From contig DATMWY010000247.1 of the NCBI GenBank assembly GCA_035562415.1, positions 1 to 44,163 of the forward strand: 44,163 nucleotides of DNA. The letters run 5' to 3'. This DNA is from Candidatus Deferrimicrobium sp. (lineage in GTDB: Bacteria; Zixibacteria; MSB-5A5; GN15; FEB-12). The notes under the pieces were generated by a model, which searched no databases, was not told the DNA's origin, and was given only the letters and a program-made list of their open reading frames with translations. Shown in pieces: positions 25,907-44,130 of this stretch; position 1 is the stretch's first letter; every line of letters begins with the position of its first letter. Both the position numbers and the translations under genes were made by a program.

Positions 25907-28360
25907 TTGGCAGGGGAAGCGGGGTGGATCATGACTGAGGAAGTCGCAACATCTACAGACAACAAATGGCTTAGGGCTGTCCCTATAGCGATGGGGGGAT
26001 CGGCCGCTCTTATCGGGCTGCTGGCCTATGCAGGCTGGGCTTTCGATATCGTTTTTCTGCAGGGCATCCGCCGCGATTTCGTGACCATGAAGCCGAATAC
26101 GGCCGTGGGGATTCTCATGCTTGGAACTTCGGTAGTTATTCTGGGTCTCGGCCAAAGTCGCCGGTTTGCCCGAATTTCGGCAAGTATACTGTCATTGCTG
26201 ACGGCGGCAATCGGAGCTCTTTCTCTCGCCGAATACATCTTTGCAGCTGACTTCGGTATCGATCAGCTTCTATTCAGAGAGCACCCGGTGGCCATCGAAA
26301 CCTGGAGCCCAGGGCGCATGGCTTTAATCACGAGTGTCTGCTTCCTGATAGTCGGCGTTGCTCTTCATATGATTGCCGCGGAATACCGGCGGATAAAGCG
26401 TCTACCGGACTTTTTTTTGTCGGCAACCGCGTTGATCGCCCTCTTCGTACTTCTCGGATATGCTTTCGACGAGCGCGCGCTGCGGAATTTGAACATGTAC
26501 GGCGCGATGGCCCTTCACACCGCGGCGGCGTTTCTCCTGATTTGCCTGGGCAGTTTTGCGCTCCGGCCTTCCGAGGGAATCGTTGCTTCAGTGTTTACGA
26601 GCGCTCCAGGTGGCATGATGCTTCGGTGGGTCCTTCCCGCAGCCGTGACCGTACCCATCCTCGTTGGGTGGCTGCGGTGGACCGGTGAGAAACAGGGTTT
26701 GTACGGCACCGGCGTTGGAGTCGCGCTGTCAGTCGTGATTACTATACTGCTCCTGACAATCCTCGTTTTGCTGGGAGCCGCCAAAATAAACCGGTCACAG
26801 GATCGGATTGATCTGATAGAGAAATCGGCGCGTGAAAACGACGAGCGACTGAGGACGTTGCTCAACGCCAGCCGAATGTCAGCCTACATGTTTGATCGGC
26901 AAGGAAGGTTTGTTTTCACCAACCGGCATACGGATGACCTGTATCAATCGGTCACGGGTGCTCTGATCGGCAAGACGCTGTACGATCTATATCCGGCGCC
27001 ACAAGCGGATATCTACCACGCCAACAATGAGCGCGTGTGGAATTCCGGTGCGATGGTTGAGATTGAGGAGACAGCACAAATTTCCGCCGGTACCAAGACG
27101 TACCTTTCGCATAAGTTCCCCGTTTGCGACGAAAACGGAGAAATGATCGCCCTGGGTGGGATCTCCTACGATATTACGGAACTTAAGAACGCGGAGAGTG
27201 AAATCAACAGATTCTTTCAGTTGTCCATCAATTTGCTCTGCATTGCCAATCTTGACGGATATTTCGTGAAGCTCAATCCCATGTGGGAACAAACACTCGG
27301 ATTCAGCAACGATGAGTTGACCGCAAAACCTTTCATTGAATTTGTTCATCCGGAAGACCGCGAGAAGACTCTGGCTGAGGTACAGAAGTTGGCCTCGGGA
27401 GTGAAGGTGATTTCCTTTGAAAATCGTTATCTTTGCAAGGACGGATCATACAAAACCCTCCTCTGGAATTCAGCGTCGGCGGTCGAATACGGCCTGATCT
27501 ATGCGACCGCAGTCGACATTACTGAGCGCAAGCAAGCGGAGGCAGACATCCTTAAACTCAACGCCGACCTATCACGACAATCCACAGCGCTTCAAGCGGC
27601 CAACAAGGAAATCGAGGCATTCAGCTACTCGGTCTCCCACGACCTGCGAGCACCACTTCGAAGTATCGACGGTTTCAGTCAGGCGCTCCTCGAGGACTAC
27701 CGGGACCGGCTCGATGAGACCGGCAGAGACTATCTGAGGCGCGTGCGGTCGGCCGCCCAGCGCATGGCCCAGCTCATCGATGATATGCTTCAGTTATCAC
27801 GAATCACGCGCATCGAGCCGAATCCGGAGCATGTCAACCTGAGCGCCGTCGCGGGGGCGGTCATTGCCGATTGCCGACGGAAAAGCCCGGATCGAGCAGT
27901 CGAGGTCACAATCCAAGACGGTCTGGAGGTTGACGGAGACCCGCGGCTTCTGCGGGTGGTTCTTGAGAACCTGCTCGGCAATGCCTGGAAATACACTTCG
28001 AAAAAAGCGGCGGCACATATCGAATTCGGCTCTCGGACAGACGCCGGTGATGCCACGTTCTTTGTGCGCGATAACGGCGCCGGTTTTGACATGGCCTACG
28101 CCGACAAGCTCTTCGGTGCGTTTCAGCGCCTGCATTCAGTGGAAGAATTCGAGGGTACGGGAATCGGTCTGGCGACCGTGAAACGAATTATCCATCGGCA
28201 CGGGGGTGAAGTCTGGGCCGAAGGAGCCGTGGATGCCGGCGCCACATTCTATTTCACATTGAAACCTACAACGATAGTTGGAGAAAATGATGAAAGACAA
28301 GATCATTCTGCTGGTCGAGGACAATCCGGACGACGTGCAGTTGACGCTGCGTGCTCTTAA
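25907..28360 (+). CDS. membrane-bound PAS-domain sensor histidine kinase
   Basis: ~8 predicted TM helices and two PAS-like segments. H-box [17 protein letters not shown]-box GNAWKYT, G1 DNGAGFD, G2 GTGIGLATV. An alternative ATG start is at 25931. Confidence 0.85.
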
Positions 28361-28742
28361 GCAGAACAACATCACCAACGAAATAGTGGTCGCCAAAGAC
28401 GGTGTCGAGGCGCTCGAATACCTGTTTTGTACCGGAACATACGCCGGTCGTAACCCGTACGCCTTGCCTCAGGTGGTGTTAATGGACCTGAAACTGCCGC
28501 GTGTCGATGGCCTGGAGCTCCTCCGTCACATTCGCGCCGACCGACGAACGAAATTTCTGCCCGTGGTAATCCTGACGTCTTCCAAGGAAGAACAGGACTT
28601 GATAGGCAGCTATAGCTTGGGCGCCAATAGTTATATTCACAAACCGGTGGATTTCGCACAGTTCTGTGAAGCTGTGCGCCACCTCGGGCTGTACTGGCTG
28701 CTCCTCAATGAAGTTCCGCAAATTGAGACGGTGTTGTCATGA
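28290..28742 (+). CDS. single-domain CheY-like response regulator
   Basis: [23 protein letters not shown] and HKP motifs. GGAG lies 6 nt upstream of ATG 28290 (alternative starts at 28278 and 28287). It overlaps the kinase 3' end. Confidence 0.85.
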
Positions 28743-29878
28743 ATACGCCGCTCCGCGTGTTGCTCGTGGAAGACCGCGAGGAAGATGCAGTTCTGGTCGA
28801 AAGAGAGCTGCGCCAGGGTGGCTTTGATCCTACGAGCACTCGCGTCGAGACGGCTGAAGCCATGCGCCGAGCCTTGACTGAGGAACAATGGGACGTCATC
28901 ATCGCCGATTACTCGCTTCCCCAGTACAGTGGCATGGCGGCGTTTCGACTGTACCAAGAGGTCGGGCTTGATGTGCCGTTCATCCTTGTGTCCGGCACCA
29001 TCGGTGAGGAAATCGCCGTCTCGGCCATGAAGGCGGGAGTACACGACTATGTCATGAAAAATAACCTGGCGCGATTGGCGCCTGCGATCCAACGCGAGCT
29101 GCGGGAGGCGACGGAGCGATCGGCTCGCAGGCAGGCTGAAGAGGAGCTCAAGAAGACCGAACGCCTGCGAATGATTGGGCAATTGACCGCTTCTCTCATT
29201 CACGATTTGAAGAATCCTCTGCAGTCGATCCTCAGCTCGGCGGAACTCCTGAGTGCCGAGGACATCCGGCCGGAGCAGCGGCTGAAGTTCGGCGATCTGA
29301 TTGAGCGTCAGATTCAGCGGATTCTATCGATGAGCGATGAAGTCCTCGATTTCGTGAAGGGTGGCGTACAACTTGCACTGCGGCCGGTCAATCCGGCGGC
29401 CGTTGCGCAGGAAGTGGTCGATACGTATGCACCCGTCTTTGCGAAAGCAGGCATCGACCTGTCATGCGCCAGTGATCCGGAGAGCCCTCCGGTGCTTACT
29501 ATCATGGCCGACGAGCGCAAAATCTGGCGAGTGCTGCAGAACATGATCGCAAACGCCAAGGACGCCATGCCCCGAGGCGGCCAGGTCACCCTGAGAGTGA
29601 GTCCGGCGGGTGAGCAGGTCGTCATCGAGGTCTCTGACGAAGGGGGAGGCATACCCGAACCCATCCGAGACTCTCTCTTCAAGCCGCTCGTTTCATACGG
29701 AAAGAAGTGCGGCACGGGACTGGGGCTGGCCATTGTGAAAAGCATCGTGGAGGCGCACGGCGGCTCCATACGATTCACGATGCGAGAGGGTACCGGCACT
29801 ACCTTTCACATTACGTTGCCGCGATTTCCCGTTGGACCTCGAGATGACAAAGCCGTGCTCGTGGCTGCCGTTTCATGA
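28739..29878 (+). CDS. receiver-histidine kinase hybrid protein
   Basis: N-terminal receiver (VLLVEDREED, IIADYSLP). H-box SLIHDLKNPLQSI, N-box NAKDAM, DEGGGIP, GTGLGLAIV. ATGA overlap with the upstream gene. Confidence 0.85.
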   Translation: MNTPLRVLLVEDREEDAVLVERELRQGGFDPTSTRVETAEAMRRALTEEQWDVIIADYSLPQYSGMAAFRLYQEVGLDVPFILVSGTIGEEIAVSAMKAGVHDYVMKNNLARLAPAIQRELREATERSARRQAEEELKKTERLRMIGQLTASLIHDLKNPLQSILSSAELLSAEDIRPEQRLKFGDLIERQIQRILSMSDEVLDFVKGGVQLALRPVNPAAVAQEVVDTYAPVFAKAGIDLSCASDPESPPVLTIMADERKIWRVLQNMIANAKDAMPRGGQVTLRVSPAGEQVVIEVSDEGGGIPEPIRDSLFKPLVSYGKKCGTGLGLAIVKSIVEAHGGSIRFTMREGTGTTFHITLPRFPVGPRDDKAVLVAAVS

Positions 29879-31146
29879 ATTGCTCAGCTCCCAAAACTGA
29901 CCCGGCCAACGGACCGGCGCTCGAATCCGAGCCGCTCTCGAAAATTCTCGTGGTTGATGACGACGATGATCTGCTGGACGCGGTGACGACCCAATTCGCT
30001 TCTACCTACGAAGTCCATACGGCTTCGAACGGTGCGGAGGGTCTGCAGCGCTTGAGCACCAACGGTCCGTTCTCGGTCATCGTCTCCGACATGCAGATGC
30101 CGGAAATGAACGGGATTGACCTGCTGCGCCACGCACGTGCCCTTTGCCCCGACACGGTGCGCGTCATGATGACCGCTTACGGCGATCTGAACACAGCCAT
30201 ACGTGCCGTGAACGACGGGTACGTTTTCCGCTTTGTGGTCAAACCGTTCCGCCGCGAGGAAATGGCCGGTGTCCTTGAAATTGCTGTAGCTCAATATCGT
30301 CTTGTCACCGCAGAACGGGAGTTGCTCGAACGTACGCTCCTTGGCGCAATCCAGGCTCTCATCGATGTGCTCGCGCTCACGAACCCGCTGGCATTCGGGC
30401 GCGCGTCCCGCCTTCGCTCGTACGCACGGCAGGTGTCGGAAGGCCTGAACGTAGAGTCGGCGTGGGAGGTTGAACTCGCGGCGCTCATGTCGCAAATCGG
30501 ATGCGTCACCATCCCCTCGGATATCATTGCCAAGGCCTATTCCGGCGATAATTTGCTGCCGGAGGAGCAGACCCAGTATTCACGGCTGCCGGAAGTGAGC
30601 GCATCCCTCATAGCCCACATTCCCCGCCTGGAGCGCGTGGCTCGGATCATTTCGCTGTTATCTCATCGCTCGCGTGGACAGGTGCCTCCTGCCCCAAGTG
30701 CGAGCGGCCCGGCAGATTTCGAATCGACGGCCGCCAGTATTCTCGCGGCGACAATGGATCTCGAAGCGCTGCTGGCGCGCGGATTTTCCAAGTCCAGGGC
30801 CCTGGGAGAGCTTCAGAAGCAGAAAACGTTGTATGAACCGCGCGTGTTCAGGTCCCTTTTCGCTCTCGAAGTCGTAGCTTCAGACCGGAAAATGGCGGTC
30901 GTGAATATCTGCGACCTGAACAATACCATGGTGATCCGGCAGAATATCTACGCGGACAATGGCCTCCTCGTTATCGGTGAGGGTCAACAGGTGACTTTGG
31001 CCATGAGAGAACTGTTGCGAACCTATTACGAACGCGGCGCCATACCCGAAGTGGTGGACGTCTGGGTCTCGGCTGAAACTTCGAAATCGCTGGTGGAGGA
31101 CATCGTTCCTCGCCAGTCCAGAGGACGTACGCCGGCCAAAGCGTAG
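29875..31146 (+). CDS. response regulator with a degenerate HD-GYP-like output domain
   Basis: Receiver (ILVVDDDDD, VIVSDMQMPEMNG, VKPF). The output domain aligns by eye to RpfG-type HD-GYP, but the HD dyad reads SQ (AALMSQIGCVTIP) and no HHE/GYP motif is visible. ATGA overlap with the upstream gene. Confidence 0.65.
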   Translation: MNCSAPKTDPANGPALESEPLSKILVVDDDDDLLDAVTTQFASTYEVHTASNGAEGLQRLSTNGPFSVIVSDMQMPEMNGIDLLRHARALCPDTVRVMMTAYGDLNTAIRAVNDGYVFRFVVKPFRREEMAGVLEIAVAQYRLVTAERELLERTLLGAIQALIDVLALTNPLAFGRASRLRSYARQVSEGLNVESAWEVELAALMSQIGCVTIPSDIIAKAYSGDNLLPEEQTQYSRLPEVSASLIAHIPRLERVARIISLLSHRSRGQVPPAPSASGPADFESTAASILAATMDLEALLARGFSKSRALGELQKQKTLYEPRVFRSLFALEVVASDRKMAVVNICDLNNTMVIRQNIYADNGLLVIGEGQQVTLAMRELLRTYYERGAIPEVVDVWVSAETSKSLVEDIVPRQSRGRTPAKA

Positions 31147-32747: not shown

Positions 32748-32776
32748 AAGCCGGGTGTTATCGCCCGGCTTTTTTC
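32748..32776 (+). terminator. rho-independent terminator
   Basis: aagccggg-tgttatcg-cccggctt followed by ttttt, 21 nt after the stop codon. Confidence 0.65.
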
Positions 32777-32806: not shown

Positions 32807-33799
32807 CTACTGTGGCCCCTCAATTACAAGCGTTTGACATTCGGGCTTATGGATAAAGCAATATCTGAATTTGATGATGACGAATTGTCCAACCGGCTGG
32901 CGGTCATCGACCGCTGGAGCAAAGCGCCATTTGGGCAAGACATCGAGAAGGTTAATGGCGAAGCCGTACTGTTTTGGATTTTCTCGCAATACCAGATTGG
33001 GTAACTCATTATGCGACGAGCACGAGTCAATGTAAACCTTGAGCTGAGCCGAATCACCATTATGCCACCGACAGCTGAAGTACTGAGTCTCAAGTGCATT
33101 TGACGATTGACCGGGCCGCTCCACGTAGGGTGCGGCCTGATCCCATGTATCAATGTGGGCTGAGAAGGGCGTTGCCTGACCTGCTGCATCGATGTAGAGC
33201 AGGACATCGACTTCCCCCTCTCGCCCGTATTGCTGTGCAAGCTCGGGCACTTCGGGGTCGACTTTCCTCACCAGCCGTACATTTTGTTTCACCGACTCGC
33301 CATGCTCCGGCCCCAGGGCTAAATCAAATATAGAGATGGCACGCTCATCTATGTAGAGGGGACCATCGAAGCCAGAAATCGCAATACCGTCACAGCCTCC
33401 GATCGTATCTTCACCAGTACCACCCTCATTGGGTGCAAAAGATGGAACGTCGTCACCCGGCAACGGAGGAGCTGCAAGCGTGTACACCGGCATCGGGCTT
33501 ACCTGAAGGAGCTCGGGTCGCTGTTCAGGAACAACTTTAAGCCCTGTGAAACCCAAGAATCCTTCATGTTTAGCCGGCAAGGTCCAGCCGTTTTCGGAAT
33601 GCCAAGCGGGTTGAACAGGAGTGTTGTCCAACATTGACTCGGTCACCTGCAAGTCGGCTGTTTGAGCCGTCGCGCCAGTTGACGCAGGCCTTTCAGCATC
33701 AAGGAAAACAGCGCAGAGGAAACCTATGATTACGGCCGTTAACATGCCATCGAGCATGTTCGATTGATACTCTGCTTGCATATCACTTGGCCGCCTCAC
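32807..33799 (-). CDS. TonB C-terminal-domain-like envelope protein
   Basis: One N-terminal TM helix and a Pro-containing linker. The C-terminal VRKVDPEVPELAQQYGREGEVDVLLYIDAAGQ ... LPKWRFAPAVDDRQPVGQFVIIKFRY resembles the TonB_C fold pattern. GTG 33799 is preferred (GGAGG 8 nt upstream) over the track start at 33808. Confidence 0.5.
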   Translation of the reverse strand: MRRPSDMQAEYQSNMLDGMLTAVIIGFLCAVFLDAERPASTGATAQTADLQVTESMLDNTPVQPAWHSENGWTLPAKHEGFLGFTGLKVVPEQRPELLQVSPMPVYTLAAPPLPGDDVPSFAPNEGGTGEDTIGGCDGIAISGFDGPLYIDERAISIFDLALGPEHGESVKQNVRLVRKVDPEVPELAQQYGREGEVDVLLYIDAAGQATPFSAHIDTWDQAAPYVERPGQSSNALETQYFSCRWHNGDSAQLKVYIDSCSSHNELPNLVLRENPKQYGFAINLLDVLPKWRFAPAVDDRQPVGQFVIIKFRYCFIHKPECQTLVIEGPQ

Positions 33800-33814
33800 G
33801 AATCTCACCTCCCT

Positions 33815-33951: not shown

Positions 33952-34149
33952 TTAGGTCAGGGTGAGGATTTCACCTTTAAGGCTTGACAACAAGCTCCAA
34001 AACGATATTCCGAGACACCCGAAAGCGTCCCAGAACCAGTCGGTGCTGCTCCCGTCTAAGAGGCGGGAGCACGACCCGGCGACCGCAGATTGAACGAAAG
34101 TTGCAGCCATCACAACAATCATAATCATCGCCAAAATCTTCTTTTTCAT
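33952..34149 (-). CDS. small secreted two-Cys peptide (65-aa precursor, ~41-aa mature form)
   Basis: AGGAG 6 nt upstream of the ATG. Sec-type signal MKKKILAMIMIVVMAATFVQSAVA. Mature part GSCSRLLDGSSTDWFWDAFGCLGISFWSLLSSLKGEILTLT is Trp/Phe-rich with 2 Cys. Confidence 0.55.
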   Translation of the reverse strand: MKKKILAMIMIVVMAATFVQSAVAGSCSRLLDGSSTDWFWDAFGCLGISFWSLLSSLKGEILTLT

Positions 34150-34199: not shown

Positions 34200-34766
34200 C
34201 TACTGACGACTCAATATACTGCCCACATCACCTCCTTCCTGTAGAACAGCGGTTAAGGGAGGATACTTGGCCAGCCCGGTGAACTTAACACTGACGGTCG
34301 AGTCTGCGCCAACAGCAAATGTGAGCAGGTCGAAAGAATCGCACTCACATTCAATTGGTGCAGTCAATACACTCATCGTGCTATGGCAACTCTGGAATCC
34401 GCGTGTACTGTTTGGGAGGACCTGGATAGCAAGGCTGACCCCGCGAACCTTGTCTCGCAGATCAAGTGAATCAACCTTGCGCCAATACATATCGGCGTGG
34501 TGAACGATCAATGCATTCACCGACTCATACTGGTTGGACGGGATGACATAGGCCGAATCCAAATCCTGTCGAGCCGAAGCTTGCGCGGCCAGCAGCTGCC
34601 GCTGATACTCATGGCGTTCCCGAATCATTCGATGTTGCACTGCCAAGAGCATGACAGCTAGCGCCAGCCCGAGCAGGGCGAAACCATTACGACTCCAGCG
34701 CCAGGCTCGGTGCCATTTAGTACGTGCCCGCAAAACATGGCGAGCTTCCCTTTCGCTTAGTTGCAT
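34200..34766 (-). CDS. hypothetical single-pass membrane protein
   Basis: AGGAG 7 nt upstream. Basic cytoplasmic N-terminus, one TM helix (GFALLGLALAVMLLAV) and a ~120-aa extracytoplasmic domain containing CECD. It is the first sizeable ORF after the sigma-54 promoter at 35122-35138. Confidence 0.5.
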   Translation of the reverse strand: MQLSEREARHVLRARTKWHRAWRWSRNGFALLGLALAVMLLAVQHRMIRERHEYQRQLLAAQASARQDLDSAYVIPSNQYESVNALIVHHADMYWRKVDSLDLRDKVRGVSLAIQVLPNSTRGFQSCHSTMSVLTAPIECECDSFDLLTFAVGADSTVSVKFTGLAKYPPLTAVLQEGGDVGSILSRQ

Positions 34767-34883: not shown

Positions 34884-35121
34884 GAAGCTAACCTCCGTCT
34901 AATGTTTGCCGAGTTATTAATTGCTGCGTAACGGCTTTCTCCAATTCTCCATGGGGGTCAATTACATCATGCCATGTATGTTACTTCCTTTCAGTTATCA
35001 TACCATAGCTGGGCCCAGGCCGGGCGGAGGCGGTTGGCTTGCCGTTGGTCCCACACCCGGCCCGTCAGTGGTCACGCCTGAAACCAGGAAACGGTCGTTC
35101 TGTTTGCACGATAGAATTACA

Positions 35122-35138
35122 GGCAACTAGCGTGCCAA
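35122..35138 (-). promoter_or_regulatory. sigma-54 (-24/-12) promoter
   Basis: The minus strand reads tTGGCACgctagTTGCc. This fits TGGCAC-N5-TTGC with GG and GC correctly spaced. It faces the 34766-32807 operon. Confidence 0.7.
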
Positions 35139-35246
35139 TTTGACGGATGCGAGCGACCGAATTGCCTAACCGACTGAATGACAATCGAATGCGATGCGAT
35201 AAAAGACGTGAGAAGGCAATGATTTATCTTCGCAGTGCGTTGATCA

Positions 35247-35352
35247 TTACGAGCTGTTTTACGAGGAGAATGTGATCTACAATCCTAAGTGGCAAAGACT
35301 CAATGAGATCGCTGGCGTTTGCGGGTTACGAATGAATTCGTAAAATTCGTAA
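35247..35352 (-). promoter_or_regulatory. putative enhancer (UAS): five TTACGA(A/G) half-sites including an 18-bp palindrome
   Basis: TTACGAG at 35247 and 35259 (12-nt spacing). TTACGAAT-ga-ATTCGTAA at 35326-35343, plus an extra ATTCGTAA at 35345-35352. These lie 110-215 bp upstream of the -24 element and are duplicated collinearly at 42106-42211. Confidence 0.55.
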
Positions 35353-35408
35353 TGGAGCCTGATCGATTGAGAGGTTTAAACAATGAGTGGAAGACGACCG
35401 GTCGCCTA

Positions 35409-37538
35409 CTACAGCCCCAGCTTGCGCCGGCGATGACGAACCGTCCCCTCGCTCACACCCAGCAACTCCGCCGCTCTGCTTTGATTCCCCCCTGATCGCA
35501 CTATTGCTGCTTCCAAGTCCTCCCGCTGGCGCTCTTGCTCCTGCTCGCGGGCACGCTGCAAAATTTTCACCGAGTCCTGCCCCGCCTCTGTCCACAAGCG
35601 CTGCACCAGCGCCTGCAACTGCCGTACATTCCCCGGCCAACTCCACTGCGACAGCAGCTCGCCTAACTCAGAAATAGCCGTCTCATTTCCGCCTGTCAGA
35701 TCAAACCCGGCAAACGTCAAGAAATGCCGCACCAACGCCGGAATATCTTCTCTGCGCGCATCTAATGGCGACAACACGATCGGAATCTGGTTCAACCGAT
35801 GATACAAATCGAGCCGCAGCCGTCCGATGCGCAACAGCTCCTGGACATCAGTACTGCTGGCTGCGATCAATCTGAAATTGACCGCCCGCCGCTCATTCTC
35901 TCCCAGTCGCCGGACACACCGTGTTTCCAGGACTTCCAAAAGCTTCGCCTGCACTGCCGATGACGCCTCCGCCACTTCATTGAGAAACAACGTTCCCTCC
36001 GCGGCTTCGGCGATCAGCCCCGGACGATCCTCACTGCCGGTAAACGCCCCTTTCGTGCATCCAAAGAGCTCCGCCTCGGCCAGTGCATCGGGGATCGTCG
36101 CCATGTTCACGATCACCAGTTTGCCGGTACGTCCGCTGCAATAATGGACATATCGAGCAAATAAATCTTTGCCGGTGCCCGTCGCCCCCGACAAAAGCAC
36201 GGTCATTTCCGACGGCGCGATGTTTTCGACCAGGGCCACGATCTTCTTCATCGCCGGACTCACCGCCACCACGACCGGGCGCGCCGCGTCGGCTGTCTTC
36301 GTTTTTGCGGGAGGCAGGACGTGCACGCGAAGTTGGGCATCGATCTTGTCCACGTAGTGCGTGACATCCTCCGCGGCAAAATACTCCCGCGCCAGATACA
36401 GCATAGCCGTTCGCTCGGTTTCAGCGTGCAGCCCTGACGTGGCCGCGAGATAGCGCGTCACCGCCAGCTCGTAGCGCGAGCCGACGAGGTTGAACATGTC
36501 CATCGCCTTCCCGTACCACTGGCGCGCTTTGTCCGCGTCACCCCGATGAGCTTCCACCTGCGCAAAAACACGATGACAGGCCGCGATCTCGACTCGCTCG
36601 TTGATCTTCTCGGCGACCACCAGCGCCTCGGAGGCGAATTGCTCAGCCAGTTGAAACTTGTTCGTGGCGACATAGAGGTCCCCAAACAGCCGTTTGATCT
36701 GCGATACGAGAGCCGACTCCGGCGCGATCTTGATAGAAATCTCTAACCCGGCTTTGAGCGCCTTCTCGGCGGCGGGGTAGTCTCTGTCCAGGATGCAAAT
36801 CAGGCCGAGATTTTCGTAGTAGATCGCTTTCTCTCTGATGTACTTATCGAGATACGGCCGGCACTTGGCGATCGTCTTTCTGGCCGTGGCGATATCGCCT
36901 TTGTAGGCCAGAGGGAGAGGAAACATCTCGGTGTAAATGAGGACATTCTTTTCACCGGTAGATTCAATCCGCTCGGCAATATCAGCGTATACGATCCGTG
37001 ATTCGCGAATGGCCCCCGTCATAAAAAGCAAATAGGCGAGGTTACTTGATGCAACAGTCGCACCGTGATCGTAATGTAACTGACAGTATATGTCGATGCA
37101 CTTCCGGAGGTTGGAAATGGACGACTCAAGGTGTCCCAATATCAACAACACATACGATAACTGATTAAGGGCGCGGGCAGAACCTTTCAAATCCCGGCAT
37201 CTCAAAAAGTTCACGTGAGCCTCAAGTAAGACCTCCTGTGCCTCTGCGTGCCTGCTCAGTGCCGAGAGAAGCCATCCTTTGAGGAACTTCGCCCAAGCAA
37301 ATATGTCCGTTCGTTCGCTACCCCGAAACTTCTCGATCACTTCATCGATAAGATTGCCAACGGAATAGTCACCCAGATACAAGGACGCTTCTGCAGTCAG
37401 AAGAGAATGATGCCCTATTTCTGCCGCACCGAGGCCGGCGACATCAATGTTCTTCAGTTCGTTAAGAGCGTCACAATAGCGCTTATTGCGAACCAATTCC
37501 TCGATTGCTTGTAGGCTCTTCACGGTCTGGTTTGTCAT
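35409..37538 (-). CDS. sigma-54-dependent transcriptional activator with a ~400-aa N-terminal TPR-like domain
   Basis: Walker A GATGTGKD, sigma-54 contact loop GAFTGS, R-finger region LRLDLYHRL, and a C-terminal Fis-type HTH (GNQSRAAELLGVSEGTVRHRRRKLG). The N-terminus is made of TPR-like helical repeats, and there is no receiver domain. Confidence 0.9.
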   Translation of the reverse strand: MTNQTVKSLQAIEELVRNKRYCDALNELKNIDVAGLGAAEIGHHSLLTAEASLYLGDYSVGNLIDEVIEKFRGSERTDIFAWAKFLKGWLLSALSRHAEAQEVLLEAHVNFLRCRDLKGSARALNQLSYVLLILGHLESSISNLRKCIDIYCQLHYDHGATVASSNLAYLLFMTGAIRESRIVYADIAERIESTGEKNVLIYTEMFPLPLAYKGDIATARKTIAKCRPYLDKYIREKAIYYENLGLICILDRDYPAAEKALKAGLEISIKIAPESALVSQIKRLFGDLYVATNKFQLAEQFASEALVVAEKINERVEIAACHRVFAQVEAHRGDADKARQWYGKAMDMFNLVGSRYELAVTRYLAATSGLHAETERTAMLYLAREYFAAEDVTHYVDKIDAQLRVHVLPPAKTKTADAARPVVVAVSPAMKKIVALVENIAPSEMTVLLSGATGTGKDLFARYVHYCSGRTGKLVIVNMATIPDALAEAELFGCTKGAFTGSEDRPGLIAEAAEGTLFLNEVAEASSAVQAKLLEVLETRCVRRLGENERRAVNFRLIAASSTDVQELLRIGRLRLDLYHRLNQIPIVLSPLDARREDIPALVRHFLTFAGFDLTGGNETAISELGELLSQWSWPGNVRQLQALVQRLWTEAGQDSVKILQRAREQEQERQREDLEAAIVRSGGNQSRAAELLGVSEGTVRHRRRKLGL

Positions 37539-37812
37539 TTTCTACGGTCGCTTGCTTTTCATTCAAAAACTTGATCACGATGAAATAGTACGAGCCGAGT
37601 TCAAGGTAATAGTTCCAATTACTGAAGGACCACTGGCTGTCTGCGTAGATCTTGTGATCAGGTACTCCCCATCCCCCGTCATCCCCTTCACGTGCTCTGT
37701 CACTGCCAATGATTCGCGGCCAGCCGGGCCAGGAGGAGCGAGCGGAGAGAGGCGGCGAAAGGACGGTGAATAGAAACAGCCCCAGCAATGATAGCGCTGT
37801 TAACCTCTTCAT
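37483..37812 (-). CDS. hypothetical small secreted protein
   Basis: Signal peptide MKRLTALSLLGLFLFTVLSPPLSARS with a Trp/Tyr-rich mature part. Its 3' end overlaps the EBP start by 56 nt, which lowers confidence. Confidence 0.4.
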   Translation of the reverse strand: MKRLTALSLLGLFLFTVLSPPLSARSSWPGWPRIIGSDRAREGDDGGWGVPDHKIYADSQWSFSNWNYYLELGSYYFIVIKFLNEKQATVENDKPDREEPTSNRGIGSQ

Positions 37813-38069
37813 GTGATTCTCACCTTGCTTTCAAGAGCTTTTCCTGCGGTCCGGGCGTAATGCCCAAACCAGTCTCCTCCTCATTTGTCGGTAAAAAGAT
37901 ACACGACCCCCAACATGCTGTCAAGGGAAAAATTGACGCCGCGGCTGCTAATTTTCGCGTCGGTAGGCGCCGACCGTACCATCCGCCGGCGACGGCGTCA
38001 GTGCCAAAATACGGCACTCACTGGCGCGGTGCCACAGGGCTCGCCCGCGGCACCCCGCTTCCGGTTCGC

Positions 38070-38324
38070 TTACACGTACCGCTCAACGAAAAACGAGATG
38101 GTTCCGGCCACAAGCCCGGCGAGCAACATGAAAAGCAGCAGGCGTCCCACACGCCGTTTCTCTGGCGGAGCTAAGGTATAGCCGGCGGACAGCGTCATGA
38201 GACAGCCGCCAACAAACCAGCCCAGGACCGAAAAGGCTCCGCCGGCCTTGCCGATCGCTTCCGCCACGAACACCGCGATCAGCACGCCGAGGAAATGCAG
38301 CAGGTAATTGCGTGTTTCACTCAT
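38070..38324 (-). CDS. hypothetical 84-aa three-helix membrane protein
   Basis: Three hydrophobic helices and no motif. It is GC-rich, unlike the adjacent ABC/rSAM genes. Confidence 0.4.
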   Translation of the reverse strand: MSETRNYLLHFLGVLIAVFVAEAIGKAGGAFSVLGWFVGGCLMTLSAGYTLAPPEKRRVGRLLLFMLLAGLVAGTISFFVERYV

Positions 38325-38485
38325 GCGTCCCTCGTATCACCCTTATTCAATCCAATCTCCAACCGCCCAGGCAATTGTACATCCGACCAATGTTACCAAT
38401 TCTGCCCATAATGAACTATTCCCGCTAGAACATTGAACCCCAGTGATCCGCTGCTATGCGAGCCGATGACCGTCGCCCAGAAGAA

Positions 38486-39244
38486 TCAGTAGTCACCGTT
38501 TTTACTGACGTACAGAGAGATGCCTAATGACGCAAGCGCCATGAGTATGAGAATAAGCATATCAAACGAGAAGAAGTTCGATGCACTCACTAGGTACGCT
38601 TGTCGGGCGCTGTTGCAGGTGTAAGTCAGCGGATTAATCGTGCTAATGGCTTGAATCCAGGAGGGGGCTTTCGAAATGTCATAATACATAGTACTGGAGA
38701 ACGTAAGCGGCATCGAAACCAACATAACCAAAATCTCACGAAGGTCATCCCGTTTCATCATCAGGCCAATAGCTAATCCAAGTGAAAGCCAGACGATCGT
38801 GCCAAGAAGTACTGTAACGCCGAGGACAAGCGCATTGGCGACATGTGCTACTGCCACCTCTCCTTGGGAAATGATAAGGGCTAGCATTATCAGGATAATC
38901 ACTTTGACCATGTTGACGACTGATTGAGCGACAATTTTCCCGCCAACGTACTCTTTCAGTCCGCCATGCGAGAGAACGATAATACCGAGCATACCTGACA
39001 TTTTGTCGTGACGTACGAATGTTAACGCTATCTGAAATGTCATAAAGGTTACAAAACCTACAAGACCTGGCGTGAAGTAATCCAAGTAATTGACGGACAT
39101 CCCCTCGTACGAAAAAGCTGACAGATTCCTTCCGAAAACGGTGGCAAAGAACACCAGCAGGAAAAGCGGGGCGACGAAATGAAGTACCACGCTCAAACCT
39201 GATGTAATGACCGTTTTGAACTCACGCCAAATAATGGTCTTCAT
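38486..39244 (-). CDS. ABC-2 type transporter permease
   Basis: 252 aa with six hydrophobic helices in the ABC-2 layout. ATGA start/stop overlap with the upstream ATPase gene. Confidence 0.8.
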   Translation of the reverse strand: MKTIIWREFKTVITSGLSVVLHFVAPLFLLVFFATVFGRNLSAFSYEGMSVNYLDYFTPGLVGFVTFMTFQIALTFVRHDKMSGMLGIIVLSHGGLKEYVGGKIVAQSVVNMVKVIILIMLALIISQGEVAVAHVANALVLGVTVLLGTIVWLSLGLAIGLMMKRDDLREILVMLVSMPLTFSSTMYYDISKAPSWIQAISTINPLTYTCNSARQAYLVSASNFFSFDMLILILMALASLGISLYVSKNGDY

Positions 39245-40161
39245 TTTGGTCTCGTTCCATATCTATCAAAAAGATCTGTGAGTGAGGTTTTTGTTTCACT
39301 CATGCTTGTGATCCCGAATTTCTTACGTAGCGCTTCAAGAAAACAGAGAACGTCACGGGTGTACTCTGCGAATTCAAGAGTGATAACGGTGTCGCTTCCC
39401 TGAACAACCTTAATGTTGTCCGCTGACAGGTTTTCTGAGAACCGGCAGTGACGGGATAGGTTGACCGTAAGTTTTACTTTGATTTCGCCGGATAGATTGT
39501 CTTTTTTGCCCACGTATAAAAGTTCCCCGTCCCTTATGAAACCGACCCGGCCACAGGTTCTTTCCACTTCAGTTACGTCGTTTGACGCCAGCAGGATTGT
39601 GCACGTGTTATCAGAAACGTACTCCTTTATGGCCTGCCACATTGCCAGCTTTCCTTGGATGTCAATCCCTAAGCTCGGCTCATCGAGCAAGATGTACTTT
39701 GGTTTGCCCAAAAAAGTTCTCGCCAGTTGAGCCCGGCGGAATTGCCCACCCGACAATGCCAATACCCCTTTCTTTCGAAAATCACCGAGCCCGAATATTT
39801 CGACTGCCTTTTCAATCTCGAACTCACTCATCCTGGCCGGAACTTTTCTCAATTTACAATAGAAACGCAGATTGTCTTCAACGTTGAGCAATAGGTCGAG
39901 AGCATGACCCTGCGGCATTTCGGCCAGAGACCTACGTATGCCAGCCAGGTCCGTGTTTATCTCTTTGCCGTCAAAGAATATTCGTCCGTGCGTTGGTTTC
40001 AGCAAAGTCGAGCAAATGCGCAGCGTAGTGGTCTTGCCCGCTCCATTTGGACCGAGCAGCCCAAACACCGTTCCCTTGGCAATGGACAGCGTCACTCCCC
40101 TCAGTGCCTCAAAGGAACCATACTTCTTCGACACGTCTTGAAGAACAATAGCATCTGCCAT
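39241..40161 (-). CDS. ABC transporter ATP-binding protein (DrrA/ABC-2 partner type)
   Basis: Walker A GPNGAGKTT, signature LSGGQFRRAQLA and Walker B ILLDEPSLGID. TGATG overlap with the rSAM stop codon. Confidence 0.9.
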   Translation of the reverse strand: MADAIVLQDVSKKYGSFEALRGVTLSIAKGTVFGLLGPNGAGKTTTLRICSTLLKPTHGRIFFDGKEINTDLAGIRRSLAEMPQGHALDLLLNVEDNLRFYCKLRKVPARMSEFEIEKAVEIFGLGDFRKKGVLALSGGQFRRAQLARTFLGKPKYILLDEPSLGIDIQGKLAMWQAIKEYVSDNTCTILLASNDVTEVERTCGRVGFIRDGELLYVGKKDNLSGEIKVKLTVNLSRHCRFSENLSADNIKVVQGSDTVITLEFAEYTRDVLCFLEALRKKFGITSMSETKTSLTDLFDRYGTRPK

Positions 40162-41579
40162 CAGCGTAACCTTACATTATGGTTGCTCTTCGGGCACAGG
40201 GGGTGGATGCCCCACGCTGATCCATACACTTTATAGACATCTCTGACGCACCATCCCATCTCATGAACGCATTTTACGTAGTGCTCGCATTCATAGCAGG
40301 CTCTACCTAAGAAATACGATTTTTCAGGGTAAAGCAACGACTTCACCTTATCAGATTGCCAAACATCGTTCAGTGTAGTTTTCGACAGATCACCCAACAG
40401 GAAGGGCTCTTTGCTCGGCAACTGTTCGCATGGGATAACTTTTCCCGACGGTGTTATCACTAACCCCATTCTTCCAAACGCACATCTGGCTCTTGAAAGG
40501 AACTTGGCAAACTTCTCTTGGTTTGTGAGATTACCACTATCTAATCTTGGTGTCGCGACGATCGCATTGTGCTTGTTGATCTTGTCAATTTGATCGTTTA
40601 GCCAGGCGATGTCGGAATCGTCGACAAAAAGTGAGTCACAGTGTCGATACGTACTTCTATAATACCGACTCAGCACGATGTTTTCTATAACCGCAGAAAC
40701 CAAATATTTCACGAGTTCTGGGATATCCATTACGTTATATTTCGTTACCACGCTGTTTGTTGAAACCGTGATGCCAGCGAGTTGTAGGTTTCCAATCGTG
40801 TGAATTGCTTCAGCTACATACCCTTTCCTCCCAACCAGCATCTCCGTCGATTCTGGTTTGAGTGAATCTATGCTTACCTGCATTCGCAACACCCCGGAAT
40901 CTGCCAGCCGAAAACACATGTTGGGAGTCAGGTATTCCTTTGTCGACAATATAAGGATGATATCCTTGCTATTAATATATTCGATGAGGTCAAAGACCCA
41001 TCTCCTGGTAAAAGGATCACCGCCTCCCAAATACATGACTTGCACCTTGGAGTCGCACGCCTGATCTACAATTGCTTTCGCGAAGGCCAGACCCATTTCT
41101 GACAAGTCTTCCCTAGAATCCCGGTTTGCGTAGCAATACAAACAGTGAGAGCTGCATCTATAAGTCAACAACAGTACAAGTGATAACGGCGTCTTTAACC
41201 TGAAATGTGACATGTCGACTGATGACTTCGGCATTATGAAATCATAAGGTTGGTATTTGTCGTTTATCATGCCTTCGACAAGAAAGTCTTTGACCTCTCG
41301 AAGGTAGTTCATCATGAACGCCTCGGCCTGTTCCCGAGAAACCCGTGTCACACTTGAAAGAAGGCTTATTATTTCATCCATACGACGACTTCCGTTGAAC
41401 AAGCTTAGTATTATAGCATGAAGCGGATGGAGGAGGCTTTGGTTGATGACATCTCCTGTGACAGCATCTATTTTGTAGCAAAGAATATTGCTTTCTGCCG
41501 CTCGCAATCTCAAATCAGGGTTGAAGCACAACATTGAGATACTCTTATAGGCGGGGGCATCATATGAAGCCCCCGCCAT
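40161..41579 (-). CDS. radical SAM / SPASM-domain peptide-modifying enzyme with an N-terminal RRE (PqqD-like) region
   Basis: CSSHCLYC, a CxxxCxxC cluster motif at ~aa 142-149. C-terminal Cys-rich twitch/SPASM pattern (CAFGRMGLVITPSGKVIPC ... CYECEHYVKCVHEMGWC ... HPLCP). The first ~110 aa (LHAIILSLFNGSRRMDEIISLLSSVTRVSREQAEAFMMNYLREVKDFLVEG) look like a PqqD/RRE winged helix. Confidence 0.85.
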   Translation of the reverse strand: MAGASYDAPAYKSISMLCFNPDLRLRAAESNILCYKIDAVTGDVINQSLLHPLHAIILSLFNGSRRMDEIISLLSSVTRVSREQAEAFMMNYLREVKDFLVEGMINDKYQPYDFIMPKSSVDMSHFRLKTPLSLVLLLTYRCSSHCLYCYANRDSREDLSEMGLAFAKAIVDQACDSKVQVMYLGGGDPFTRRWVFDLIEYINSKDIILILSTKEYLTPNMCFRLADSGVLRMQVSIDSLKPESTEMLVGRKGYVAEAIHTIGNLQLAGITVSTNSVVTKYNVMDIPELVKYLVSAVIENIVLSRYYRSTYRHCDSLFVDDSDIAWLNDQIDKINKHNAIVATPRLDSGNLTNQEKFAKFLSRARCAFGRMGLVITPSGKVIPCEQLPSKEPFLLGDLSKTTLNDVWQSDKVKSLLYPEKSYFLGRACYECEHYVKCVHEMGWCVRDVYKVYGSAWGIHPLCPKSNHNVRLR

Positions 41580-41582
41580 CGA

Positions 41583-41711
41583 TCACTGGAGCATGAATCC
41601 AATGATGCAACTGGCACACATCAGGCCACAAATGAACCCTGCGGAAAGAGTCCCTTCCCCAGGAAGTGTTCCTTGAGCCAGCCCCTGGCTCAATGGCTCA
41701 AGCAGGCCATT
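41583..41711 (-). CDS. candidate precursor peptide, 42 aa (not in the ORF track)
   Basis: Hand translation gives MACFEPLSQGLAQGTLPGEGTLSAGFICGLMCASCIIGFMLQ. Its stop lies 3 nt before the rSAM ATG. It has no SD of its own and its start lies inside the 16-codon ORF 41698-41748. Confidence 0.45.
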   Translation of the reverse strand, partial: NGLLEPLSQGLAQGTLPGEGTLSAGFICGLMCASCIIGFMLQ

Positions 41712-41748
41712 GAGGTCCAGGGTGCTTCTTAGATCGTGCGCTAACATA
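41698..41748 (-). CDS. 16-codon upstream ORF carrying the strong SD, possibly the true N-terminus of the precursor via a +1 shift
   Basis: GGTGAGGTGA-ttt-ATG gives MLAHDLRSTLDLNGLL-stop, with the terminal context CTT TGA G. Confidence 0.3.
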   Translation of the reverse strand, partial: YVSARSKKHPGPQWPA

Positions 41749-41980
41749 AATCACCTCACCTGTTTAGGGATTATCAGTATCAGCTTAGCCGTAAGTTTCT
41801 TGACGGCAACGTCTTTTTCAAAGCTTCATGTGTTCATTGGTCTAACCTCCTTTCGTTTTTTTCCCTTAGGCCGGGCCCGGTTTTCTGATCGACCCGACGG
41901 CAAAAGCTTTTCTCCACACCCGGCCGGGGTCACGCCTCAAACGAAGAGACGGTTGTTCTGTTAGCACGACAGAACGTAGG

Positions 41981-41997
41981 GCAATCGGTGTGCCGGA
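41981..41997 (-). promoter_or_regulatory. sigma-54 (-24/-12) promoter of the peptide/rSAM/ABC operon
   Basis: The minus strand reads cGGCACaccgaTTGCc, with GG and GC elements at the canonical spacing. It is homologous in position to the promoter at 35122-35138. Confidence 0.65.
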
Positions 41998-42105
41998 TTA
42001 GAGCAAACGTGCGATAAAATCACATAACTGATTGATTGACAATCGAATGTGTTGCGAGGAATACCTAGAGTATCCGAGGCTCGTTCAGGAGAAGCGCCGG
42101 ATTAT

Positions 42106-42211
42106 TACGAGCGGCTTTACGAGGAGAATATGATCCACTATTCTAAGTGGCGGAGAGTCAATGAAATCGTCGTCGTTTGCGAATTACGAATGAATCCGTA
42201 ATATTCGTAAT
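42106..42211 (-). promoter_or_regulatory. putative enhancer (UAS), paralogue of 35247-35352
   Basis: TTACGAG at 42106 and 42118. TTACGAAT-ga-ATcCGTAA at 42185-42202, plus ATTCGTAA at 42204-42211. Distances to the -24 element are identical to those in the other copy (110 nt, and ~200 nt to the palindrome centre). Confidence 0.55.
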
Positions 42212-42319
42212 GGCGTCCGATTGATTCCAAGTCCAATTGTGAAGGGAAAGTGATCCGTCCCCGTCTGTAACTCCAATTTTGGGCCGACACCGGTATCCCG
42301 TACCCGCATCCGATTTTAC

Positions 42320-43713: not shown

Positions 43714-43787
43714 TCGGGGCGACTGGATTTGAACCAGCGACACCTTAGTCCCGAACCAAGTGCGCTACCGAACTGCGCTACGCCCCG
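43714..43787 (-). tRNA. tRNA-Pro (anticodon CGG), no encoded CCA
   Basis: Hand-folded cloverleaf. Acceptor CGGGGCG/CGCCCCG, D stem GCGC/GCGC, anticodon stem CTTGG/CTAAG with loop TTCGGGA, T arm GCTGG-TTCAAAT-CCAGT. 74 nt. Confidence 0.9.
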
Positions 43788-43872: not shown

Positions 43873-44130
43873 CCCTCCCCCAAAGGGGGAGGGAGATAAT
43901 GGGTCAAAATCACGCCGCCCCCTTTGGGGGAGGGAGACGCGGAGCGTCGTGAGGGGGCTCCTCACCGGCTCGCCACGCGGTACCCCACCTAACAGGTGCG
44001 TTTTTCCTGAGATAGAAAGGGGAAAATCCCACCCTAAAGGGGAGTGTTGAAAAAGTCCTTCATGTGGGCTGCAGACGTCCCCGTCTGCCCCTAATTGGTT
44101 GTAGCACATAGGCAGGTGTGGACATCTGCC
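43873..44130. repeat. hairpin-dense GC-rich intergenic region upstream of tRNA-Pro
   Basis: ccctccccc-aaa-gggggaggg (43873-43893). ccccc-ttt-ggggg (43918-43930). gtgagg-gggct-cctcac (43949-43965). gcagacg-tccc-cgtctgc (44071-44088). ggcag-N10-ctgcc (44111-44130). Confidence 0.45.

Follow-up and report, generated by a model that had tools for sequence, protein, structure and literature searches.

A probable sigma-54-dependent locus for the synthesis and export of a radical SAM-modified peptide in an uncultured member of the Zixibacteria

Introduction

Gene clusters in which a radical S-adenosylmethionine (rSAM) enzyme acts on a peptide that is ribosomally synthesized and then post-translationally modified (RiPP) are a main source of new peptide chemistry, and uncharacterised families of such peptides (RaS-RiPPs) are numerous, compendia holding ~15,000 of the enzymes (PMC10288494). 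Streptococcal RaS-RiPP operons are controlled by an Rgg/SHP regulator-peptide pair (PMC9389541, PMC13361665). In those of the streptide type (SuiA/StrA, SuiB/StrB, StrC), the precursor gene is followed by the gene of an rSAM enzyme with a RiPP recognition element (RRE) and a SPASM domain, and then by a transporter gene. In sactipeptide and ranthipeptide loci (sbo-alb with AlbA, SkfB, CteB, StsB, PapB), a precursor with a cysteine core is likewise encoded directly 5' of an RRE-rSAM-SPASM enzyme, in the company of ABC export/immunity genes. In Myxococcus xanthus, an enhancer-binding protein (EBP) together with -24/-12 promoters directly drives secondary-metabolite genes of the polyketide synthase/non-ribosomal peptide synthetase (PKS/NRPS) kind (PMC7910581). 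Here we analyse a 44,163-nt stretch of the genome of Candidatus Deferrimicrobium sp. (Zixibacteria; contig DATMWY010000247.1 of assembly GCA_035562415.1, positions 1-44,163; hereafter "the window"), in which a short precursor-like gene, an rSAM enzyme gene, two ABC transporter genes and the gene of a sigma-54 activator with tetratricopeptide repeats (TPR) stand together.

We consider it probable that this is a sigma-54-dependent locus for the synthesis and export of an rSAM-modified peptide, and that it represents a rare family which curated collections do not yet include. In the open-access literature that we searched, no paper connects an rSAM RiPP with sigma-54 or with an EBP of the TPR type, and the combination of Zixibacteria with RiPP returned nothing specific.

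The precursor peptide and the radical SAM enzyme

Open reading frame (ORF) calling on the minus strand, from 42.2 kb down to 35.4 kb, returned the frames that a first-pass annotation of this DNA had listed, at the same coordinates; the genes, promoters and enhancers of the locus and of the second operon treated below all lie on this strand. The precursor gene (41583-41747) encodes a 54-aa peptide, MLAHDLRSTLDLNGLLEPLSQGLAQGTLPGEGTLSAGFICGLMCASCIIGFMLQ, for which neither Pfam nor NCBIfam holds a family. What had been noticed as a short Cys-rich ORF turns out to be a conserved gene, since ten distinct homologous peptides were found, each encoded directly 5' of a homologous enzyme gene and each keeping L6, L15 and the three cysteines; in the alignment with 7 homologues, M1, L6, L15, C40, C44 and C47 (window numbering) are invariant. 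Every close relative has an ORF of 45-55 aa directly upstream of the enzyme gene, e.g., L001 (MFVHELQDALKANGLVEVL...FGDMCGLFCANCIIGFNAY), L167 (MSAELLRSKLEGSGLIDTL...AGDICGFMCASCIIGFMVY) and L172 (MHNTIFQGALDQSGLRESL...LGDICVLCANCIFGAFQQ), with further homologues in L166, L007/L086, L170, L087 and L005 (L numbers denote related loci that were fetched for comparison, 170 in all). The leader follows the pattern L-x8-L inside M..xL..xLxxNGLL and ends with a Gly 2-3 residues ahead of the first Cys (mostly G-D or G-G, in the window A-G-F), and the core of ~17 aa is hydrophobic, with its three invariant cysteines arranged as C-x2/3-C-x2-C. A short ORF beside the enzyme gene, a conserved leader and a core with modifiable residues, the marks of a RiPP precursor, are all present at the level of sequence. 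A search with a profile of these peptides found 10 clusters only among 5.8 billion proteins, none of them named, and no NCBIfam model passes for any precursor of the family.

The wider enzyme family (25-33% identity), with hosts in Paenibacillus, Methanothrix, Syntrophobacteraceae and Acidobacteria, has Cys-rich upstream peptides with the same L..L...GL leader (e.g., CTIGCSMRCTSCSPGCS in Paenibacillus and CSQGCEKGCTTCTSCSSCS in Methanothrix). In L010-L012 and L018 (Paenibacillus) and in L014 and L016 (Methanothrix), the enzyme gene is preceded by a tandem of two genes for Cys-rich precursors; their products join this leader to cores with CxxxC-type repeats, and the loci are claimed by none of the NCBIfam precursor models scanned, nor by an enzyme model.

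The enzyme gene (40161-41534) encodes 457 aa when read from Met16 of a longer ORF that extends to 41579. The search of 40161-41579 against Pfam identified Radical_SAM (PF04055; 2.3e-19, 70.6 bits against a cut-off of 29.5) and SPASM (PF13186; 7e-9, 36.3 bits against a cut-off of 21.5). The CX3CX2C motif (C127/C131/C134, numbered from Met16) is conserved in all homologues, and the seven SPASM cysteines vary little if at all (C351, G364-X4-C369, C413-X2-C416-X5-C422-X6-C429 and C447), the final spacing being X6 in the window enzyme, not the X3 of CX9-15GX4C...CX2CX5CX3C...C. An AlphaFold (AF2) model built on ten sequences (pLDDT 92.6, pTM 0.90) has the barrel fold of the radical SAM superfamily. 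Superfamily membership is therefore indicated by domain score, motif and fold, and membership in the SPASM subfamily by domain score and the seven cysteines. Ahead of the barrel, residues 1-80 of the model form a four-stranded sheet (one strand of 3 residues) with three helices, a domain that we describe as beta3-alpha3. Foldseek against the PDB placed SuiB first (8e-17), aligned over the full length including the N-terminal region, followed by PqqE, SkfB, TigE, CteB and BlsE, with anSME at the 12th place or lower, whereas the PDB sequence search had PqqE nearest (5e-27) and also returned SkfB and SuiB. The N-terminal domain may thus be taken as a putative RRE by its structure only, and with this qualification the RRE-rSAM-SPASM architecture proposed by the first-pass annotation is borne out by Pfam, by the model and by its structural neighbours.

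The family is compact and rare, and most of its members belong to uncultured Zixibacteria. A word-indexed search of 5.8 billion proteins returned only ~21 relatives of the enzyme, the best of them 53% identical; when 1.84 billion cluster representatives were searched exhaustively with a profile, 1209 proteins matched at E<=1e-30 and >150 of the matches extended over the full length with values below 1e-75, among which the subfamily of the window enzyme collapses to essentially one 50% cluster.

Between the stop codon of the precursor gene and Met16 of the long ORF lies a GC-rich hairpin (41550-41577, GGCGGGGGC-N10-GCCCCCGCC) with a perfect stem of 9 GC-rich base pairs; its fold reaches -25 kcal/mol (z -3.7), which none of 200 shuffles equalled. 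Hairpins of similar strength and unrelated sequence occur at the same position in all eight loci folded, and the sequence of L172 likewise has one between precursor and enzyme. Because the homologous enzymes begin with MLxxxP, which corresponds to Met16, and because the hairpin fills the interval after the precursor stop, the enzyme most likely starts at 41534 rather than at 41579. The start at 41579 was rejected on these grounds, and with it falls the earlier argument for translational coupling of precursor and enzyme: the 3-nt gap between the two frames is no evidence for it when the enzyme starts past the hairpin. A hairpin behind the precursor gene is the usual device by which RiPP operons obtain more message for the precursor than for the enzyme, and sbo-alb, too, has a stem-loop in this place.

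The exporter

The stop codon of the enzyme gene overlaps the start of an ABC transporter ATPase gene (39241-40161; DrrA-like, Pfam ABC_tran 8.8e-28) as TGATG, and the ATPase gene in turn overlaps the gene of an ABC-2 type permease (38486-39244; DrrB-like, ABC2_membrane 1.6e-19) as ATGA; both overlaps had been read correctly in the first-pass annotation. The Pfam domains are those of DrrAB-type transporters, but the NCBIfam models TIGR01188 and TIGR01247 stay below their cut-offs (drrA, 191.8 against 312; 97.4 against 223). Wherever the contigs of the close subfamily reach far enough, a 47-54% identical ATPase and a 57-61% identical permease are encoded behind the rSAM gene, with the exception of L003, in which the peptide encoded upstream of a 47%-identical enzyme is divergent and exporter genes are lacking; neither gene follows the enzyme in relatives of 25-36% identity. 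The rSAM-ABC-ABC-2 set is co-conserved in the close subfamily only, and to judge from the sequences the DrrAB-like exporter appears to co-evolve with the enzyme.

Two related loci show other arrangements. The cluster of L001 ends with an Rce1-like protease. In L171 (the contig of P0012, whose enzyme is 35% identical), an extracytoplasmic function (ECF) sigma factor gene and a 164-aa gene lie ahead of the enzyme gene and two type-1 ABC exporter genes behind it, so that here the same enzyme clade is wired to another alternative sigma factor.

Sigma-54 promoters and the TPR activator

The first-pass annotation had placed an enhancer and a -24/-12 promoter upstream of the precursor gene, and both exceed chance expectation. 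The enhancer (42184-42210) consists of three half-sites of the ATTCGTAA type (TTACGAAT a TTACGGAT tc ATTCGTAA), and the predicted promoter, which we call P_up (41980-41995, cGGCACaccgaTTGCc), lies ~200 bp downstream of it and 232 nt upstream of the start codon of the precursor. The 27-nt enhancer element, TTACGAATNTTACGNATTCATTCGTAA, is present twice in the window (0 expected), the second copy (35326-35352) being located 57 nt past the stop codon of the activator gene. The window has five exact ATTCGTAA octamers, and none of them falls outside the two copies. The strict pattern YGGCAC-N5-TTGCH has exactly 2 matches in 44 kb (0.18 expected), both on the minus strand, namely P_up and a second predicted promoter, P_down (35122-35137, TGGCACgctagTTGCc); each of the two -24/-12 elements is correctly oriented and has an enhancer copy ~200 bp upstream of it. 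The elements of a sigma-54 promoter (GG-N10-GC, TGGCAC-N5-TTGCW and an enhancer 80-200 bp upstream) can all be recognized.

The regions of P_up and P_down are paralogous over ~390 bp (35061-35368 versus 41919-42226, 71-83% identity, spacing 6858), and their conservation spans the enhancer, the promoter and a leader with a strong Shine-Dalgarno sequence and a mini-ORF of 2-3 codons. The left limit of the island had been set at 35409, which is too tight, as the second copy of enhancer, promoter and leader lies beyond it and faces three more ORFs. L001 has a homologous promoter, CGGCACAGATGTTGCC, 243 nt upstream of its precursor gene and the only strict match in 21 kb (0.07 expected), with three ATTCGTAC(C)-type repeats ~190 bp above it; L167 has an analogous triple repeat, CAATTCGGCGC, and L170 and L087 have good -24/-12 promoters.

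The 5' leader behind P_up contains the Shine-Dalgarno sequence GGAGG and a 3-codon mini-ORF (ATG AAC ACA TGA) at 41826-41850, an arrangement shared by P_down, L001 and L170. The mini-ORFs (MNT*, MA*, MN* and MEQ*, at 41826-41850, 34967-34990, ~9630-9655 of L001 and ~3480-3500 of L170) sit 70-100 nt ahead of the first real gene, and the arrangement may serve as a ribosome-binding stabiliser of the mRNA or as a standby site. Ahead of the mini-ORF, a putative conserved long-range stem of the leader, GGCCGGG...CCCGGCC, was observed in the window (41860-41935 and 35005-35075) and in L001 (9545-9620), with a consensus fold of -21 kcal/mol and some compensatory changes in an alignment of three sequences only. 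Since Rfam at gathering thresholds matched only tRNA in the window, the conserved 5' untranslated region is no known riboswitch or leader.

The last gene of the locus (35409-37538) encodes a sigma-54 EBP in which a TPR region of ~400 aa (MalT-like) is joined to an AAA+ domain and a Fis-type helix-turn-helix (HTH). Pfam identified TPR_12/TPR_MalT, Sigma54_activat (PF00158; 4e-51, 173 bits), AAA_lid_14 and HTH_8 (31.6 bits), and the protein has a GAFTGS loop, a Walker A motif GATGTGKD and a Walker B motif LNE, which together mark it as a bacterial EBP (bEBP). The GAFTGA-type loop and the HTH are conserved across the activators. In all five that were compared (window, N520-E521; L001, L166, L170 and L087), Asn replaces the Asp of the canonical hhhhDE in Walker B. 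Full-length homologues are encoded beside the clusters of L001 (48% identity, and 45% for the TPR region), L166 (40%), L170 (34%) and L087 (30%), and a divergent one, cut by the contig end, in L167. A TPR activator therefore adjoins the cluster in each of the six close loci with enough flank (window, L001, L166, L167, L170 and L087), and the link between cluster and sigma-54/TPR-EBP, which the first-pass annotation knew from one genome, is conserved rather than coincidental.

Directly 5' of the activator gene, a gene at 37483-37812 (orf109) encodes a secreted protein of 109 aa, which has a signal peptide and the motif DDGGWG; the last 56 nt of the gene overlap the start of the activator gene. 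A sigma-70-like promoter (TTGACA-17-TATCTT, 37896-37924) precedes both genes; it is a pattern match at 10/12 positions of the consensus.

Alternative interpretations

The neighbourhood of orf109 and the activator allows another view of the regulatory half of the locus, in which it would be a quorum-sensing-like circuit, an analogue of RRNPP/Rgg-SHP systems coupled to sigma-54: the TPR domain would sense the processed orf109-type protein or the exported RiPP, and the modified peptide would be an autoinduced signal or a competition factor. Secreted proteins (100-140 aa) that have a signal peptide and share the motif DDGGW/DPWG are encoded directly 5' of the activator, their genes overlapping its start, in five loci (window, L001, L166 with two, L167 with three and L087), the TPR domain is of the ligand-binding MalT type, one enhancer type is common to both promoters, and SuiB, the closest structural relative of the enzyme, comes from an Rgg/SHP-controlled operon (PMC9389541, PMC13361665). 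However, these proteins far exceed the known RRNPP propeptides in size and lack conserved C-termini, they might just as well belong to the envelope and have no part in signalling, the locus has no Opp peptide importer, and the top-ranked literature matches contain no experimental precedent for a TPR-sensing EBP. With RRNPP/Rgg-SHP systems the locus shares the TPR and the adjacent gene of a secreted protein, but its domain order and its AAA+/sigma-54 output differ. On balance we think such a circuit unlikely. The bolder proposal that a sigma-54 peptide-signalling circuit switches two operons and that the short hydrophobic C-x2/3-C-x2-C core receives an undescribed type of cross-link also has little probability in our judgement; if true, it would add a new sensory class of bEBPs and a new class of RiPPs from an uncultured phylum.

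The second alternative concerns the enzyme, which might be a maturase of a cofactor or a protein (PqqE-, mycofactocin-, anSME- or heme-d1-like), the short ORF then being a cofactor precursor or irrelevant. Its top sequence scores in NCBIfam and the PDB indeed go to PqqE, MftC, a tungsten-cofactor maturase and AhbD/NirJ, and the precursor core of some members looks like a CX3CX2C metal-binding motif. Yet the window enzyme passes no NCBIfam model: it reaches 92.5 bits against a cut-off of 381 for PqqE (TIGR02109), with no pqq genes in the window, 86 against 265 for MftC, and altogether 65-90 bits against cut-offs of 265-650 for the models of MftC, AhbD, NirJ, tungsten-cofactor and anSME-type maturases, all such scores being 4-6 times under the curated cut-offs. 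The sactipeptide synthase models AlbA (NF012164, 50 against 850) and StsB (NF045574, 54 against 625) are missed as well, and the wider relatives from Paenibacillus, Methanothrix, Acidobacteria, Syntrophobacteraceae and Bacteroides likewise approach no NCBIfam equivalog. Neither pqqBCD nor mftB-F nor sulfatase genes lie nearby in the window, and the enzyme travels with a dedicated ABC-2 exporter and a leader-core peptide. The spacing of the cysteines varies, being CX2CX2C in L007, L170 and L172, and on this ground the idea that the core forms a fixed CX3CX2C motif for cluster binding was rejected. A maturase of this sort is therefore very unlikely. Since no equivalog cut-off is approached, the enzyme falls into no characterised non-RiPP family; the homologous loci keep the short ORF, and the RiPP assignment of the first-pass annotation has withstood this comparison.

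Finally, it is extremely unlikely that the two direct repeats of ~300 bp are att-like insertion scars of a mobile island: although they bracket the block from precursor to activator at a distance of 6858 bp and the enclosed rSAM-ABC block is AT-richer than the genome, they share only 71-83% identity, their conservation is strongest precisely at the enhancer half-sites, at the -24/-12 element and in the leader (a concentration on regulatory elements for which we rejected them as att sites), the second copy faces a downstream operon, homologous promoters occur as single copies in L001, L170 and L087, and the survey of the window by ORF calling and Pfam found no integrase, transposase or other mobility gene within or beside the block.

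Proposed mode of action

Returning to the sigma-54-dependent RaS-RiPP locus as the preferred interpretation, its operation may be pictured as follows. The activator would be made from its own sigma-70-type promoter, and a signal sensed by the TPR domain would free the AAA+ ATPase; an activator hexamer on the ATTCGTAA repeats would then open sigma-54 closed complexes at both promoters. The intercistronic hairpin would leave precursor mRNA in excess over enzyme mRNA, the N-terminal RRE of the enzyme would bind the leader of the precursor, and the rSAM/SPASM core would cross-link the peptide core through its three cysteines. The ABC-2 pump would export the hydrophobic product and/or protect the producer, and a protease encoded elsewhere would cut the leader near the conserved Gly, which most homologues have in a G-D/G-G junction. 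Among the possible chemistries, thioethers of the sacti- or ranthipeptide type would be the most likely product, a prediction to which we give slightly less than even weight.

Several observations weigh against this interpretation or parts of it. The thioether prediction draws solely on the invariant cysteines and the enzyme class, no relative having a product of known chemistry, and SuiB, the top structural match, forms a C-C bond rather than a thioether. At E<=0.01, the PqqD/RRE model of Pfam does not match the N-terminus of the enzyme. In its loose form, the -24/-12 pattern shows no enrichment, with 17 matches in the window versus 21 expected, and the -12 elements of L166 and L167 are imperfect. 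The LNE form of Walker B could alter the handling of Mg/ATP and the ATPase behaviour of the activator, and L003 and the more distant L004/L005 are without an activator. No leader peptidase is visible in the locus, as had already been noted in the first-pass annotation, and the proteins of the second operon (see below) found no homologues by tblastn against all 170 fetched loci.

The dedicated activator with its putative TPR sensor offers a tractable handle, since a TPR-deleted form should turn the cluster on in a heterologous host. No NCBIfam model tested captures the family, whether by its enzyme or by its peptide, and the locus is an attractive target for genome mining and for studies of regulation.

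The second operon and the genomic context

Between the permease gene and orf109 lies an ORF (orf84, 38070-38324) for a small hydrophobic membrane protein of 84 aa with ~3 predicted helices. It had no tblastn match in the related loci, and an immunity or accessory role of its product is speculative. No Pfam or NCBIfam family, even at E<=5, was found for orf84, orf109, a 171-aa ORF and two ORFs of the second operon (orf188 and orf65).

P_down faces three genes. The first (orf188, 34200-34766), which is also a gene in the source annotation, encodes 188 aa with an N-terminal membrane anchor, the second (orf65, 33952-34149) a secreted peptide of 65 aa (signal peptide and a 41-aa mature part with 2 Cys), and the third (32807-33808) a TonB-like protein of 333 aa with an N-terminal anchor and a Pro-rich spacer, whose match to TonB_C is weak (8e-4, 20.2 bits, under the cut-off of 24.6) and whose single-sequence AF2 model has a pLDDT of 32. 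On the contig of the homologue P0007, genes of 172, 69 and 274 aa (the last with a faint TonB_C) lie directly 5' of the precursor gene, a likeness of architecture only. As tblastn found no homologues, its promoter and the similar architecture on the contig of P0007 are what ties the second operon to the system. The duplicated enhancer/promoter block links it to the same signal, and P_down would drive the 188-, 65- and 333-aa products together with the RiPP operon. Just beyond the stop of the 333-aa ORF, a hairpin resembling an intrinsic terminator (AAGCCGGG-N8-CCCGGCTT then TTTTT, 32748-32771) is oriented for transcription of the plus strand, yet no plus-strand gene terminates there.

The window is chromosomal, as dnaA lies at 22739-24154, and GlmS, which shares 86-88% identity with proteins from metagenome-assembled genomes of Zixibacteria, places the host in this phylum. 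The first-pass annotation had described the block as visibly AT-richer than its flanks and had suggested horizontal acquisition. The shift in composition is real but smaller than its spot counts implied: from precursor to permease, GC is 46.8% versus 55% in the remaining window, and GC at third codon positions (GC3) is 0.51-0.55 in the module versus 0.61-0.72 in glmS, dnaA and mrp. The activator gene has a host-like composition (56% GC, GC3 0.67). L087 (43.5 versus 54.2) and L004 (36.7 versus 51.8) likewise have a module richer in AT than its flanks, but L170 and L166 do not. Acquisition from elsewhere thus agrees with the composition in several hosts, although three of the named hosts, including this one, are Zixibacteria; the composition suggests lateral spread of the module without proving it.

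Positions 25907-31146, a few kb past the second operon, hold the genes of a histidine kinase with a PAS domain, of a hybrid receiver-kinase and of a response regulator with receiver and HD domains, with no established link to the cluster. At 43873-43934, a 20-nt inverted repeat (CCCTCCCCCAAAGGGGGAGG / CCGCCCCCTTTGGGGGAGGG) adjoins a tRNA gene (43714-43787).

Comparison with known systems

Haft's in-silico Cys-rich/CXXX-repeat rSAM target systems (TIGR04115-04118), which are also without characterised products, resemble the wider family in its Cys-rich precursors with the L..L...GL leader. Two of these precursors faintly touch TIGR04117/04118 (13-18 bits versus cut-offs of 35-50), and the window peptide hits nothing. 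PqqE/PqqA has the highest sequence score in NCBIfam and the PDB and is likewise a case of an rSAM-SPASM enzyme acting on a small peptide, but the putative RRE is fused to the window enzyme instead of being a separate PqqD, the window lacks pqqB/C/D, and the precursor has no Glu-X3-Tyr motif. The clusters driven by EBPs in Myxococcus are PKS/NRPS clusters with non-TPR activators, whereas in the window a RiPP cluster contains, and is co-inherited with, a TPR activator dedicated to it.

Sactipeptide and ranthipeptide loci share with the window a precursor with a Cys core directly 5' of the enzyme and the presence of ABC export/immunity genes, and two of their enzymes, SkfB and CteB, belong to the best matches by fold. 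On the other hand, the curated models of AlbA and StsB are far from being reached, the core of the window peptide has just ~17, very hydrophobic residues, and AlbE/F-type peptidases are absent. The parallel with sbo-alb that the first-pass annotation had drawn accordingly holds for gene order and enzyme class and reaches no further.

The streptide-type operons have the gene order of the window and, in addition, a repeat-domain regulator with a neighbouring gene of a small secreted peptide (PMC9389541, PMC13361665). They differ in sequence (18-19% identity), in the Lys-Trp C-C cross-link and the lack of a Cys-rich core, in the transporter type (ABC-2 in the window) and in the regulator, Rgg being a sigma-70-type HTH regulator and not an AAA+ sigma-54 activator. 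In its working mode, the locus by analogy appears closest to these streptide-like RaS-RiPP operons and also near to the sactipeptide/ranthipeptide loci. Nothing in it conflicts with current understanding: it is an uncharacterised, rare rSAM RiPP family within a well-known type of system, with an unusual and conserved sigma-54 wiring.

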